Virus record (IMG/VR): IMGVR_UViG_2939521961_000006
Length of the DNA stretch: 64,000 nt
Origin: a virus
Lineage: Duplodnaviria > Heunggongvirae > Uroviricota > Caudoviricetes
Reading direction: 5' to 3' (one strand)
Part shown: positions 15,001 through 21,000 of the stretch, in pieces
Layout: every line of letters begins with the position of its first letter
Numbering within the stretch: the first letter of the stretch is position 1
Program-made: the position numbers

Positions 15001-18000
15001 CGTTCACGCTGACGCAGTCACCGGTCAGTGCATTTGCGGCGGATAAACTGCATGTGACAGACATTACCAGGAATGCGACTTACCCGGTACTGATAGACAG
15101 CATTGTGGTGGAAGTGAACAGCACAGACACTGCGGCATGATAAAAAAACCGCCAGCGACAGGAATGGACGCTGGCGGTGGTGATACCTATGGAGAAAAAA
15201 TAAAGGAACGATACTTTCGTACTCTGGTTTTTTAATGAAAACAGTTCTTATTGTCAACAATAACGGAAAGAAATTATGACATTTCTGAACCAGTTAATGC
15301 TGTACTTCTGTACGGTGGTCTGTGTGCTGTATCTCCTTTCGGGTGGATACCGGGCCATGCGTGACGTCTGGCGCAGACAGATTGACAAAAGGGCCGCTGA
15401 GAAAATCAGCGCCAGTCAGTCAGCCGGAAGCAAACCCGAAGAGCCGCTCATTTAGCGGCAACTTTCTTAATCACATCTTTCGACGAGAAAATCCCATGTC
15501 AGAAATTACATCCCTGGTCACTGCTGAGGCAGTGAAGGAAGTCCTGCGCTCTGAAGAAGTCCTGAGCGCACTGAAACAAAAACTTCGCCATAACCTGGAA
15601 GCGCGTCTTGATGCAGAGGTTGATGCCATTCTGGATGAGCTGCTTGGTGTACAGGCAGAGCCACCGACTGAAGCGGGAGATACCACCGCAGAGAGCGGTG
15701 AAGTTCAGCCTGAATCACCGGTCGCCGATGCGACTGAACCTCAACCCGAATCGGTCATGATGCTGTAACGGGGAGTCAGGGCCATCAGTAAACAGCTGCT
15801 GGCCTTTTTCATGTTGTGAGCTTCCGGATAACGGGAGACGGGGTATGTACCAGATGGAAAAAATCACAACAGGTGTGTCATACACCACGTCAGCGGTAGG
15901 GACGGGATACTGGTTACTGCAACTGCTGGACAAAGTCTCTCCGTCCCAGTGGGTGGCAATAGGTGTACTGGGGAGTCTGCTGTTTGGCCTGCTGACGTAT
16001 CTGACTAACCTGTATTTCAAAATCAGAGAGGACCGGCGTAAGGCGGCGCGGGGAGAGTAAAGCGATGAAGAAAAAATACGAACTGGTTGTTAAAGGGATA
16101 AATAATTACCCGGATAAGATTACTGTTACTGTGGCACTGGAAATTGGTGGGTATCCGTCACTGTTGTTGCCAGATGTGGCGATTAGTCTTGACCGTACTG
16201 AAGGTGCCACGCTGGAGTTTTACGAAGCTGAGGCGAAAAAGCAGGCGAAGCAGTTTTTCATGGATGTTGCTGCCGGGTTATGTGAAGGGGATGGTCCGTT
16301 GCCGGAAAAGCGGCCCATCATTTTAGAGGCGCAGGATGTGTTGATAACCTACAGAGGAAAACTACCGGGAATAATTACTGGTTCTCTGAAGACTCCACCG
16401 CTGGCCTGAAGACTTAACATATCCAGGGATTTGAAATCGATAAACCCTGATAAATATCCATGAACACCAAAATCAAATACGGCCTGTCGGCTGCCGTTCT
16501 GGCGCTGATTGCCGCAGGTGCGCCTGCACCTGAAATCCTCGACCAGTTTCTGGATGAAAAGGAAGGTAACCACACCACAGCATACCGTGATGGTACGGGT
16601 ATCTGGACCATCTGCCGCGGTGCCATCCTGGTGGATGGTAAACCTGTCGTCCCGGGCATGAAGTTGTCGAAGGAAAAATGCGACCAGGTTAACGCCATTG
16701 AGCGTGATAAGGCGCTGGCATGGGTGGAGAAAAACATCAAAGTGCCGCTGACCGAACCCCAGAAAGCGGGGATCGCGTCATTCTGTCCGTACAACATTGG
16801 TCCCGGTAAGTGTTTCCCGTCGACGTTTTACAGACGAATTAATGCAGGTGATCGAAAAGGTGCCTGCGAAGCGATTCGCTGGTGGATTAAGGACGGTGGC
16901 AGAGACTGCCGTATTCGTTCAAACAACTGTTACGGTCAGATATCCCGTCGTGACCAGGAGAGCGCGCTGGCGTGCTGGGGAATCGACAGATAAGAAGAAT
17001 ATTTTGCTGAAAAATGAGGTTTGCTTACATGGACGGATAACACGAAATCCTGCAAATTGGCAAAATGTAAGTGAATAAAGTCAAAACAGTTGTTTAACAC
17101 TCAGGCACCGTAATGATGCCTTTGTCATTTCTGCGCATCTCACGCGCATCTCACAACACAGAACCTTTCAGGATGACCCTTGAGGATACCGGTTTGGCTG
17201 TCGGTGCCTTTCTGTGGGCTGGATTCCTGTGAGACAAGGTTCATCACTAAAAGGAAATAACCGATGAATATGATGGCCGTGCCGTTTCACGGCAACTCTC
17301 TTTATGTAGTTAACCATAATGGCGAACCATACGTTCCCATGAAACCTGTCGTTGCGGGGATGGGGCTGGCCTGGCAATCACAGTTGGCTAAGTTAAGACA
17401 GCGTTTTGCGTCAACTATAACGGAAATCGTTATGGTTGCTGAGGATGGGAAACAACGCAATATGGTGTCCATGCCACTTCGAAAACTTGCCGGCTGGCTA
17501 CAAACCATTAATCCCAACAAAGTAAAACCCGAAATCCGCGATAAGGTCATCCGGTATCAGGAAGAGTGCGACGATGTTCTTTACGAGTACTGGACGAAGG
17601 GTTTTGTCGTTAATCCCCGTAAAATGAGCGTGATGGAAGAACTCAACCAGGCTTGTGCTGACATGAAACGGGATAAAAACATTGCCAGTGTGTTTGCTAC
17701 CGGGCTGAATGAGTGGAAACAGGTTAAAGCCGCGCATGTATCAAAAATCCGTACGCTGGTAAATGAAGCGAATATGCTGATTGATTTTGTCCTGGCTGAT
17801 ACAGGCAAAGGGAAAATAACAAAGGCGGATTGATGGGGTGGCTAATGATATCAGATAAACTCATAACGCTGGTGAAGAGCCTCTGTGTACTTGTCGGCAT
17901 TTCATTTTTAGTCATGCTGGTTGCCATTTTCTTTTCCACCGCCTGGCGAGTCCTGACGTTATCGGGACTGGTGGGGTGAAAGAGAGATGAACCGTGTTCT

Positions 18001-21000
18001 GTGTGTGGTGATTATTGTCCTGGCGGTTGGCTGTGGTGCGCTGTGGCTGGCAACAAACCATTACCGTGACAACGCGCTCACCTACAAAGCGCAGCGCGAT
18101 AAAAAAGCCAGAGAGCTGGAACAGGCGAATGCCACCATTACTGACATGCAGGTGCGCCAGCGTGATGTTGCTGCGCTCGATGCAAAATACTCGAGGGAGT
18201 TAGCCGATGCGAGAGCTGAAAATGAAACTCTGCGTGCTGATGTTGCCGCTGGTCGTAAGCGCCTGCGGATCAACGCCACCTGCTCCGGTACCGTGCGTGA
18301 AGCCACCGGCACCTCCGGCGTGGATAATGCAACCGGCCCCCGACTGGCAGACACCGCTGAACGGGATTATTTCATCCTCAGAGAACGGTTGATGACCATG
18401 CAGAAGCAGCTGGAAGGGGCACAGGACTATATCCGCACTCAGTGCCTGAACTAAGTTTTGCTGATGCGCCGTATCGTCGCCGTATTCCTGCATTAACAGA
18501 GACCGCAGCCCGACAGGGAGACTCCTCTGCGAGAGTGTGCGGGGATAATCAAAAACGATACACACCGGGGTTTACCGCGTAAACGGAGCGCGGCGTTCTC
18601 CCCTCATGGTCGCCCGTCCGGTGCGATGGTGGAAGAAACTGGAATCTGTTCAATAAAAAAACTGCCGTGTTGGAGTCACAGCAGTAATGTACTGATTGGG
18701 TAGAAGATTATTATTGTTATGCTTTATTTTTATTCTATATGGCTGATTATTTCAATTCGGAATTAATACAGCTAATGTCTGTGAGTTTTTATAAATTCAG
18801 CAATATAAAGAAATAGTTATATGAACAGCCATCGCAGAGCATACTGTGTATCATTCTTTTTTATAGTCAACTGACGGGCATATTTTATGTCTGCTGCCAG
18901 CTCCCGGCGGCAAGATTCAATGACCCACGCAGAAAAATTTTCTGAACCTTTCTGGTCAAGAGCGATGTTAATTTGTTCAATCATCTGGTTTGGAAATCGG
19001 ATGTTGCGGGTTGTTGTTCTGCGGGTCCGGTTTTTCGATGACATTTTCTTTCCTCTGGTGACAAGTTATATGGCGAGGATTTTACATGGCTGTGCTTCGT
19101 ACGTTACCGGGCAGAATCAAAACTCTGAACACCCGGCGGGTGAATGTCCTGAAGGGTGAACAGCGTCGGGTCAGTGGTAGTGCCCGGGTTTCCCTCAAGC
19201 GCCGTATCTGGCTCAGGGATGCCGGGCAGTGCTGTCTCTGTGGTCGTGTGGTTGACCTCTGTGACAGTGAACTCGATCACCGAATTGCACTTCAGTTCGG
19301 TGGTGGTAATGAGGAGACGAATCTCTGGACGCTCTGTACCGAATGCCATCGCCAGAAGTCAGTCAGTGAAACGGCGAGTGGTATGCCGGACCCGACGCTG
19401 CCGGAGGTGTCCGGAGGTCATGGCAGGGCAGACGATATCATCGGACTGTGACCCGCCCCGGGGGGGGATCATCCGGCGAAAAAAACGATCGCCCCGGACA
19501 CCGCCCCCCGTCTCATGCAGAGAAAAAATTCCTGTTTCAGGCCAGTTAACATGTTAACTGGCTGCCCGGGCATTTTTTCGGTTTTTATCTTTATTATTCA
19601 GTTTGTTGTGCGAAAAAAATGTTAACTGGCTTTTTCAGCAAATGTTAACCAGGCAGCAGTTAACATTTGCGGCATGAGACGCCGGGAAAAATGGGCTGAA
19701 CCATACCCGGCTGAGTGCGTTATGGACCCGGGAGGAGGCTGTGCTGACAACGCAAAAACGAAAATTTGCGCTGGCGCTCATGTCCGGGAAAAACAAAACA
19801 GCGTCAGCCATTGCCGCCGGTTATTCGGCGAAGACCGCCAGGGTTAAAGGCTCGCAGCTGGCAAAAGATCCGGAGGTGCTCGCGTTTATAGCCCGTAAAC
19901 AGTGCGAAACGGTGGAGGTGGATGAGGTTCCTGTTTACCGGCAGAAAAAATCAGAGCAGGAGGATAAACCCCGTCGCCGTGAGGTGGCTGCAATACCACA
20001 GCCGGACGAAAACAATCCGGAGATGCCACCGCCCGCGGTGATGTCTCATGGTATTGAATATATGGAGGATGGTCTTCCCGATCCGGTGAAAGCTATGGGG
20101 CAGATCCTGGTGGAAAACCTCAGCATTGATCCGAAACTGGCACTGGATGCGGCCTGGCGACTGGCGCAGTTCACACACCATAAAAAAGGCGATGCCGGTA
20201 AAAAATCGGCAAAAGGTGATGCCGCGAAAAAAGCGGCTAACCGTTTTGCGGTACCACCACCACCACGACTGGTGGTGAATAACGATAATGAGGGCAACGG
20301 ATGATACCTGTATGGAGCACGGCCTGCCCGGACTGGGCAGAGCGCCTGAAAAAGGGGCTGTCGATTATTCCGGCTCCGATTTATCCGGACCAGGCCGCAC
20401 ATGCCCTGGCGATTTTTAAACAACTGCGGATTGTGGATGCACCGGGTAGCCCGACGTTCGGGGAGTCCTGTGCACCGTGGGTGTTTGACCTGGTGGCGGC
20501 TCTGTTTGGCTCCTACGATGCGCAGACCGGTGTCCGCCATATCAAGGAAGTGTTCATTCTGATACCCAAAAAAAACAGCAAGTCCACACTGGCCGCCGGG
20601 ATCATGATGACGGCGCTGTTACTGAACTGGCGGCAGGCGGCGGGTTACACGATTCTGGCCCCGACTGTGGAGGTGGCAGCCAACGCCTTCAATCCTGCCA
20701 GGGATATGGTACGACGGGACGATGATCTGGATGACCTCTGTCAGGTGCAGACACATATCCGGACCATCACCCACCGGGTGACGGACACCACCCTGAAGGT
20801 GGTGGCAGCCGATCCGAATACGGTGTCCGGTATCAAGTCCGTGGGGACGCTGATTGATGAGTTGTGGCTGTTTGGCAAGCAGTACAAGGCGGAGGACATG
20901 TTACGTGAAGCCATCGGCGGGCTTGCCTCCCGCCCGGAAGGGTTTGTGGTGTATACGACCACCCAGTCGAATGAACCGCCAGCCGGGGTGTTCAGACAGA

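Follow-up and report, generated by a model that had tools for sequence, protein, structure and literature searches.

The lysis cassette at 15845-18454 (+ strand) in the 64,000 nt window taken from IMG/VR record IMGVR_UViG_2939521961_000006 (Caudoviricetes), to which all coordinates refer, is very probably the late-operon lysis cassette of a BP-4795-like prophage encoding Shiga toxin (Stx) 1a, in which lysis would follow the phage 21 pattern and the extra genes would be passengers in two junctions, one between the holin gene S and the endolysin gene R (S/R) and one between R and the spanin gene Rz (R/Rz). The 2.9 kb from 15700 to 18600 are 100% identical to Stx1a prophages of Escherichia coli O26:H11 (e.g. 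str. 11368) and to several deposited Stx1a-converting phages, and 99.9% identical to phage BP-4795. BP-4795 (ORF46-ORF51) and the O26:H11 11368 prophage (ECO26_RS08450-RS35945) have the same gene order as the window, annotated as holin, YdfR family protein, lysozyme, anti-repressor Ant, hypothetical protein and Rz-like spanin. They show no difference of substance from the window; only the annotation of the embedded Rz1 gene and of the leader RNA described below is absent from these records. At least 80% of the region is present in 577 of 5426 complete E. coli genomes. Since essentially identical DNA is already annotated in BP-4795 and O26:H11, and the pairing of a pinholin with an endolysin of the signal-anchor-release (SAR) type in Stx phages has been published (99% of 279 surveyed Stx phages are predicted to have both; PMC8136144), the cassette is already known. 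It is a published phage-21-type lysis module through which O26 and related Shiga toxin-producing E. coli release phage and Shiga toxin 1, and as such adds nothing new. What is new is that the S/R and R/Rz junctions behave as cargo slots, the small membrane proteins constantly found in R/Rz being a lead for extra control of toxin-releasing lysis, and that the gene annotated ant shares an uncatalogued family of leader RNAs with rha, kilA-N and bro-type genes.

An initial annotation had placed seven open reading frames (ORFs) at 15845-18454 and all of them were recovered. It had passed over the 270 nt spacer between R and ant, with its structured leader (17132-17266) and terminator-like hairpin, and the start of the conserved core of the small membrane ORF at Met5. 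The features of the cassette are as follows.

15845-16060, + strand: S, 71 aa, phage 21 S-family holin of class II; start codons Met1 (15845) and Met4 (15854)
16065-16409, + strand: YdfR/DUF1327 ORF, 114 aa, beginning 4 nt past the S stop
16460-16993, + strand: R, 177 aa, predicted SAR endolysin, a T4-lysozyme-type muramidase
16994-17087, + strand: conserved downstream flank of R, common to all variants of the R/Rz slot
~17088-17847, + strand: Ant module (insertion unit), running from the hairpin through the leader and ant into the opening codons of the annotated small ORF
17103-17132, + strand: terminator-like hairpin read from the sequence, AGGCA/TGCCT (17103-17121) and then a U-rich tail
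17132-17266, + strand: structured leader RNA of ant, delimited by a covariance model, its final 3 nt being the ant ATG
17113-17232, + strand: probably spurious 39-aa ORF (phrog_16173), in overlap with the leader
17264-17833, + strand: 'Ant', 189 aa, P22_AR_N plus ORF11CD3 domains
17833-17979, + strand: small membrane ORF (phrog_4906), 48 aa from its ATG, with a conserved core at 17845-17979 (from Met5)
17987-18454, + strand: Rz, 155 aa, i-spanin with an N-terminal transmembrane segment
18207-18392, + strand: Rz1, 61 aa, o-spanin lipoprotein within Rz, offset 220 nt in the +1 frame

The holin, which the initial annotation had described as pinholin-type, matches the P21 holin S family (PF04971, 1e-32) over residues 5-67 (profile positions 1-63 of 64) and is 79% identical to EssQ of the K-12 prophage Qin. 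Residues 33-56 are strongly hydrophobic and form the only segment above 1.2 on the Kyte-Doolittle scale (15-residue window, maximum 2.25), and residues ~7-28, rich in Gly, Ser and Thr, are weakly hydrophobic and lie below that threshold. In these two segments the predicted anatomy of S is that of the phage 21 pinholin type; Met1 and Met4 are both in-frame starts. A ratio of non-synonymous to synonymous polymorphism (pN/pS) of 0.11 over 37 alleles indicates strong purifying selection.

The endolysin is a lysozyme (PF00959, 4e-24) that is under strong purifying selection (pN/pS 0.09), is 89% identical to K-12 RrrQ and matches the structures of R21 (PDB 3HDE; 5e-17, phmmer) and RrrD (4ZPU; 1e-16). 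When aligned to 3HDE, its E35-D44-T50 triad is in register with the catalytic triad of R21 (Glu-8aa-Asp-5aa-Thr). Its N-terminus carries K4 and K6 followed by YGLSAAVLALIAAGAPAP (residues 7-24), in which 10 of 18 residues are Ala, Gly or Ser, and at the sole AxA-like site (AGA) the next residue is Pro. A Pro at that position blocks signal peptidase I. The Ala/Gly-rich segment is thus predicted to be an uncleaved SAR anchor, in line with what had been proposed for this gene, and because the SAR-type segment has no Cys, regulation of the R21 kind rather than of the P1 Lyz kind is indicated by established work on these enzymes. R has no recognisable Shine-Dalgarno sequence, and whichever cargo lies upstream, a stretch of 20-45 nt ahead of its ATG (gataaatcctgataaatatcc) is conserved. 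A small hairpin, CAGGG...CCCTG, falls within the spacer 5' of R (16410-16459).

Rz belongs to PF03245 (5e-50) and phrog_13 and has hydrophobic residues at 1-25. Rz1, which had been noted as embedded in Rz, does lie wholly within it; the protein matches PF06085 (2e-21) from residue 20, has the lipobox LVVSAC with the lipoprotein Cys at position 20, and its mature part is proline-rich. The arrangement is therefore that of the lambda-type embedded two-component spanins, and BP-4795 has been grouped with phage 21, 933W and VT2-Sakai in an i-spanin family and placed in the o-spanin family of lambda (PMC6139136).

By homology, and by analogy with established work on phage 21, the most likely course of lysis is as follows. 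Q-antiterminated transcription from pR' would run through stx1AB and nanS-p, continue across the small DUF genes and reach S, whose product would build up in the inner membrane. At a fixed moment the first, weakly hydrophobic segment of the holin would come out of the bilayer, and small holes made by the second would collapse the membrane potential. R, exported by Sec and held inactive by its uncleaved anchor, would be freed by this depolarisation, refold and degrade the wall, after which Rz in the inner membrane and Rz1 as an outer-membrane lipoprotein would remove the outer membrane. YdfR would be a small cytoplasmic passenger protein. The 'Ant' regulator would have arrived as a module of hairpin, structured leader and gene, with the leader opened by a trans-acting factor or by processing, RNase III cleavage of the long helix being one candidate. 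The 48-aa protein would be one of several small membrane families usual in the R/Rz slot, where it could possibly modulate lysis timing.

Likeness to phage 21 thus extends to the PF04971 holin, the R21-like lysozyme with its E-8-D-5-T triad and SAR-type segment lacking Cys, and the embedded two-component spanin. The two differ in that R is only a distant relative of R21 (phmmer E 5e-17) and in the N-terminus of S, which is MYQM in the window and MKSM in phage 21. In phage 21 the four lysis genes are contiguous, whereas the window cassette has cargo at both internal junctions. The Qin cassette of K-12 (essQ-ydfR-rrrQ-rzpQ/rzoQ) resembles that of the window in its holin (79% identity) and endolysin (89%) and also has ydfR between them, but the Qin genes overlap one another, the spanin is of the DUF2514 family, nothing is inserted between R and Rz, and the similarity of the two YdfR proteins is confined to the N-terminal 74 residues (47%).

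The cargo-slot interpretation rests on 80 loci in viral contigs with an endolysin at least 94% identical to R, in each of which the seven proteins of the cassette were located. Both R and Rz are present in 76 of these, and together with BP-4795 and O26:H11 they make up a set of 78 cassettes, which divide by the extra genes that they carry.

YdfR absent, small ORF absent, Ant absent: 7 of 78 cassettes
YdfR absent, small ORF present, Ant absent: 6 of 78
YdfR present, small ORF absent, Ant absent: 20 of 78
YdfR present, small ORF present, Ant absent: 36 of 78
YdfR present, small ORF present, Ant present: 8 of 78
YdfR absent, small ORF present, Ant present: 1 of 78

All combinations of YdfR and small ORF presence occur, and Ant is found in only nine cassettes. 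The S/R and R/Rz junctions are, on this comparative evidence, variable cargo slots. As the interposed ORFs are absent from otherwise near-identical close relatives, which the initial annotation had regarded as the observation that would count against it, they do not appear to be needed for lysis; the absence argues that these ORFs are dispensable and not that the cassette was misread.

The R/Rz slot occurs in seven length classes (~301, 340, 430, 442, 491, 646 and 1000 nt) and holds one to four tandem small single-pass ORFs (phrog_6632, 1115, 4493 and 4906), the series ending just before Rz (L003-L082, e.g. L038, L020, L055 and L082). An RAxAFAI(K/R) motif is common to two of these families, and RWW is the C-terminal sequence of several of the proteins. 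On the left, the flank of R (16994-17087) is 85-89% identical to every slot variant and homology ends at ~17087; the window retains at 17071-17097 a nine-codon remnant (eight sense codons and a stop) of the start of a phrog_6632 small membrane ORF, and in other slot variants an ORF beginning MNKSK... starts at the same site. In K-12 Qin (essQ-ydfR-rrrQ-rzpQ), where nothing lies between R and Rz, Rz is of a different type.

The 48-aa ORF in this slot (phrog_4906, 5e-30) encodes one strongly hydrophobic segment by hydropathy. The membrane ORF and the overlap of its ATG with the TGA stop of ant, one base being shared to give TGATG, were both found as initially annotated; conservation of the implied coupling was not. 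The small ORF is present in 42 cassettes without Ant and nine with it, Ant is never found without the small ORF, and in Ant-less cassettes it starts MSDKL... after a good ribosome-binding site, e.g. AAGGGAGGAttaagcATG. Using blastn, homology to Ant-less cassettes is lost at ~17087 and returns at ~17848, and therefore the conserved small protein starts at Met5 (17845) and not at TGATG. By this comparison, the TGATG overlap and the MGWL extension before Met5 are both by-products of the right junction of the Ant insertion. As the small ORF mostly occurs without ant, and then has its own Shine-Dalgarno sequence, the TGATG overlap does not mark a conserved pair of genes.

Whether this ORF is a gene at all was also considered, as it and the 39-aa ORF might simply be open frames in a spacer that is kept by recombination. 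Its pN/pS of 0.48 is near that of an off-frame control (0.70), it is unannotated in many records including VT2-Sakai and is restricted to E. coli and its phages, and the 39-aa ORF, which is not conserved as an ORF, lies across a conserved RNA structure. However, the 48-aa ORF has no stop or frameshift in 52 loci, representing nine alleles with up to 35% protein divergence, and its hydrophobic character is kept; it has its own Shine-Dalgarno sequence, ends 7 nt before the Rz start and belongs to a PHROG family. For the 48-aa ORF the view that it is not a gene seems very unlikely, and we take it, on the strength of its conservation, to be a genuine gene for a small membrane protein. Intact copies are present in 276 deposited phage records, in most of which the ORF is unannotated, and in BP-4795 it is the hypothetical ORF50. 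No Pfam family, holin and releasin families included, was matched by the small ORFs at E<=1. A releasin of the Mu gp25 type was considered for the 48-aa protein and rejected: gp25, which controls release of a SAR endolysin, has 99 aa comprising an N-terminal transmembrane segment and a 73-aa acidic cytoplasmic domain (DUF2730) (PMC9239132), whereas the window protein has neither DUF2730 nor a soluble domain.

The S/R slot holds at least six different cargoes, including minus-strand genes and insertion sequence (IS) copies, and its right edge is the conserved stretch of 20-45 nt, lacking a Shine-Dalgarno sequence, that precedes R. Its contents include YdfR alone, YdfR joined to a coiled coil and a second domain (176-330 aa), and the second domain alone (185 aa), the last being the arrangement of 933W-like Stx2a phages. 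YdfR forms the N-terminal domain of longer fusions in L004, L010, L021, L051, L061 and others, and the 114-aa protein of the window appears to be a deletion derivative, its end falling in one half of a hairpin that occurs in the longer variants. This ORF had been placed correctly between holin and endolysin, as ydfR is in K-12 Qin, but was described as of unknown function; it belongs to a named family, YdfR/DUF1327 (PF07041, 4.7e-46; phrog_406), which is essentially limited to Escherichia and Shigella, and is a 'YdfR family protein' in the RefSeq annotation of BP-4795 and O26. It shares 47% identity with K-12 YdfR over residues 1-74. An AlphaFold2 model has a beta3-alpha domain at residues 1-73 and is of low confidence at residues 73-114 (predicted local distance difference test score ~30-35). 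The C-terminal 40 residues (PEKRPIILEAQDVLITYRGKLPGIITGSLKTPP, residues 75-114, 16289-16409) are the best-conserved part of the family alignment, and this tail may be a partner-binding peptide. In a 2026 study, two-hybrid and pull-down experiments showed binding of K-12 YdfR to the N-terminal, catalytic half of RNase E; the contact was mapped to YdfR residues 1-72 and RNA was reported to co-purify (PMC13232886). By analogy with this K-12 homologue, YdfR may act as a phage modulator of RNase E, which is the best lead at present.

The 189-aa product of ant was described initially as antirepressor-like, and this holds for its N-terminal domain only. It has a P22_AR_N domain (PF10547, 1.4e-45) and an ORF11CD3 domain (PF10549, 5.5e-6; 27 bits against a cut-off of 25). 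Its N-terminal 127 residues are 50% identical to residues 10-136 of P22 Ant, where the alignment ends, and the C-terminal domain of P22 Ant (residues ~200-300) was not found, there being no alignment past residue 136. Instead, the C-terminal 100 residues of P22 Ant match window positions 7381-7680 with 82% identity, in a separate 116-aa ORF (7333-7683) that adjoins an IS3-family element (two minus-strand ORFs, 6161-6979 and 7015-7317), and the early-region antirepressor of this prophage appears, from this arrangement, to have been cut short by the IS. The ant gene of Phi24B with an induction phenotype lies before qut and shares the C-terminal residues of P22 Ant (PMC3064807). Its counterpart in the window is the ORF at 7333-7683 and not the 'Ant' of the lysis cassette, which is 100% identical to that in the lysis cassette of VT2-Sakai.

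Proteins of ~188 aa with the same P22_AR_N plus ORF11CD3 composition are well conserved across the Enterobacterales, with hosts in Salmonella, Photorhabdus, Xenorhabdus, Serratia, Proteus, Providencia, Hamiltonella, Sodalis and Arsenophonus, and in three distant hosts with unrelated holins and endolysins the gene again lies in or just after the lysis genes. P22 Rha, encoded directly after Rz/Rz1, has a Phage_pRha N-terminus and an ORF11CD3 C-terminus (8.8e-28); a Pfam search did not find Phage_pRha in the window protein, which has P22_AR_N instead. 'Ant' is therefore, from its domains, best seen as a domain-swapped relative of P22 Rha, a putative regulatory protein of the Rha/KilA-N class.

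An alternative is that the 189-aa protein is a true antirepressor that is made late and inactivates CI-type repressors, either locking the lytic decision or inducing co-resident lambdoid prophages. It draws on the N-terminal identity to P22 Ant and on the name ant, in use since VT2-Sakai. Trans-acting antirepressors of Salmonella are reported to induce neighbouring prophages (PMC3121763), and O26 genomes have 12-15 related prophage regions. We nevertheless think it improbable, given that the C-terminal domain of P22 Ant is missing, that the gene with the phenotype in Phi24B is of the other type and has its truncated counterpart elsewhere in the window, that P22 Rha has the same C-terminal ORF11CD3 domain, leader and position, and that Rha and KilA-N proteins dominate among 70 proteins encoded behind the same leader (see below). 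Placement in the Rha/KilA-N class would give a handle on the role and timing of very common phage genes that carry the ant label in the lysis cassettes of VT2-Sakai and of 933W-like and BP-4795-like phages.

The ~135 nt leader of ant aligns with DNA upstream of ant in Salmonella, Photorhabdus and Hamiltonella. Single-sequence folds, in which 16 leaders agree, give a small 5' hairpin (P1) followed by a long interrupted multi-helix hairpin, at the base of which CCUUU (17164-17168) pairs with AAAGG (17250-17254), the Shine-Dalgarno sequence of ant. A first alignment of five leaders made with MAFFT had 34 consensus pairs, ten with compensatory changes, and was the source of a covariance model (R1) that gave 24 matches in 82 loci, including the window copy (111.6 bits) and one in P22 (L084, NC_002371.2; 39507-39646, 46 bits) lying directly after the Rz terminator. 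Other copies are at 3869-4003 and 1826-1963 in L089 and at 3865-4003 and 4974-5110 in L087. In this first set 93.4% of cells are paired, 25 of the 34 pairs have changes on both sides, and there are 111 double-change cells compared with 38.7 +/- 4.4 in shuffles, none of 500 shuffles reaching the observed value; sliding the partners lowers pairing to 28-49%. A second set of 77 distinct viral sequences gave 92.7% paired cells and 159 double-change cells compared with 33.3 +/- 4.4.

A strict sequence motif for the leader was found in at least 120 viral contigs, and among the matches listed the model confirms 93 copies in 80 contigs (L172-L251), with frequently two or three copies to a contig. Of the 93 copies, 76 have an ORF of 40 aa or more that begins at the last three model positions, and 67 of these 76 have a T run just upstream of the leader. 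A GC hairpin with a T run is found ahead of the leader in P22, Salmonella, Photorhabdus, Proteus and others, and L045 has a stronger terminator-like hairpin (AGGCACC/GGTGCCT). Pfam domains among 70 of the downstream proteins were Rha (28), KilA-N (20), ORF11CD3 (16), HNH_3 (7), P63C (6), AP2 (4), P22_AR_N (3), TerB-like (3), Bro-N (2) and ANT (1). In five E. coli prophages (L041 245-374, L049 345-474, L053 346-475, L045 214-343 and L047 50-179) the leader precedes a gene for a 143-aa TerB-like protein.

No match to the window leader was found in Rfam 15 at E<=1. We therefore propose, from comparative sequence evidence, that this ~135 nt leader represents an uncatalogued RNA family of the late regions of temperate phages of the Enterobacterales, P22 rha included. 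Its default fold probably keeps translation of ant off by pairing the ribosome-binding site, even on late transcripts that extend into the gene. The annotated P22 rha coding sequence (39575-40180) starts inside the leader and the model puts the start codon at 39644 (GAAGGcaacgccATG), 69 nt further in; the start in the deposited record is thus probably too far upstream by that distance. No conserved reading frame crosses the leader, homologous leaders having stops in all frames, and the 39-aa ORF at 17113-17232, which also has no Shine-Dalgarno sequence, is for this reason probably spurious.

In L041 and L045, the sequence 5' of the leader resembles the 3' end of a tRNA gene plus a terminator, and lies upstream of the lysis genes, roughly in the position that stx has in Stx phages.

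Two further systems invite comparison. P22 (13-19-15/Rz1, terminator, leader, rha) likewise has a regulator gene at the lysis cassette behind an intrinsic terminator and the same structured leader. However, in P22 rha follows Rz whereas 'Ant' lies between R and Rz, the N-terminal domain is Phage_pRha in P22 and P22_AR_N here, and the P22 lysis genes encode a canonical holin and a soluble endolysin. Gifsy-1 (isrK-orf45-anrP; PMC4825925) also has a late antirepressor-like gene behind a terminator and a leader with a translationally silent default fold. Here the resemblance ends: AnrP and the window protein are not homologous (BLASTP E = 2.3), the Gifsy-1 leader matches the Rfam models isrK and C4/c4-a1b1, and no upstream small RNA (sRNA) or small coupling ORF is evident at ant in the window. 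The isrK, C4 and c4-a1b1 models gave no match in 15100-19100 at E<=1 in a scan that finds all three in Gifsy-1. That the ant module is the E. coli version of isrK-orf45-anrP was therefore rejected, neither the proteins nor the RNAs being homologous, as was the 39-aa ORF as an orf45-like coupling ORF, since related leaders have stops in all frames.

Several observations weigh against the reading of the cassette as a phage-21-like lysis module with passenger genes and an SD-pairing leader, where SD denotes the Shine-Dalgarno sequence. The Met1 extension of S adds Tyr-Gln (MYQM) and no Lys, compared with MKSM in phage 21 and EssQ, and several S alleles (L003-L082) read IHQMEK rather than MYQMEK, so that without Met1 only the shorter product would be made. 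Because of both features, an antiholin role for the longer S product is uncertain. Constraint on YdfR (pN/pS 0.53) and on the small ORF (0.48, other frames 0.70 and 1.66) is weak. Support for the leader is comparative, both large alignments having been fitted to the covariance model, and the window leader alone is no more stable than shuffles (z = -1.14). Finally, all 78 cassettes with this R and a lambda-type Rz keep at least one small membrane ORF and the gap is never shorter than 301 nt, which is odd for pure passengers.

The last point bears on another explanation, namely that the interposed genes are working parts of lysis, the small ORFs tuning pinholin and SAR endolysin release in the manner of an antiholin or releasin and YdfR adjusting the stability of late mRNA. 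All of these genes lie inside the late lysis unit without a promoter of their own, every one of the 78 cassettes has one to four small single-pass ORFs between R and Rz, and the small ORF is intact in 276 phage records and has a good Shine-Dalgarno sequence when Ant is absent. There are precedents in Mu, where a small membrane-tethered protein controls SAR endolysin release (PMC9239132), and in K-12, where YdfR binds RNase E (PMC13232886). But K-12 Qin joins an 89% identical R directly to Rz, the small ORF families interchange freely, the small ORF has no DUF2730 or other Pfam match and no cytoplasmic domain, and purifying selection is weak. This explanation is unlikely in our view. A combined proposal, that an uncatalogued family of SD-pairing leaders, each immediately 3' of an intrinsic terminator and extending to the start codon, gates translation of accessory regulators (Rha, KilA-N, Bro-N, P22_AR_N, P63C and TerB-like) and that small ORFs in R/Rz modulate pinholin/SAR lysis, is put forward tentatively, as one that falls slightly short of an even chance.

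Turning to the surroundings of the cassette, the genes upstream in BP-4795 and O26 are stx1AB, a nanS-p-type esterase gene, DUF1378 and DUF826, and those downstream are HNH and terminase genes. No sigma-70-like promoter was found on the + strand in 15100-19100, and the idea that the cargo genes have a promoter of their own was rejected on that ground. A search of the literature by protein accession turned up nothing for the cassette proteins, and PADLOC found no defence-system match for YdfR, Ant, the small ORF and two alternative slot proteins. The EcOnc anti-sRNAs of O157 prophages were considered and set aside, as they are positioned downstream of stx and not at the lysis cassette. A scan of 15100-19100 with Rfam for known sRNAs gave two sub-threshold matches, both outside the cassette. 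One, on the minus strand at 15140-15217, is to the Esr41 sRNA of enterohaemorrhagic E. coli (28 bits against a gathering threshold of 102, E 0.02). It lies between the esterase gene and DUF1378 beside a terminator-like hairpin on the minus strand, in the general area of the late region where convergent prophage sRNAs of O157 have been reported. Between DUF826 and S, a GC-rich hairpin followed by UUUUU (15778-15810, + strand; fold -17.7 kcal/mol) forms a terminator-like site within the late operon, ~35 nt 5' of the S start.

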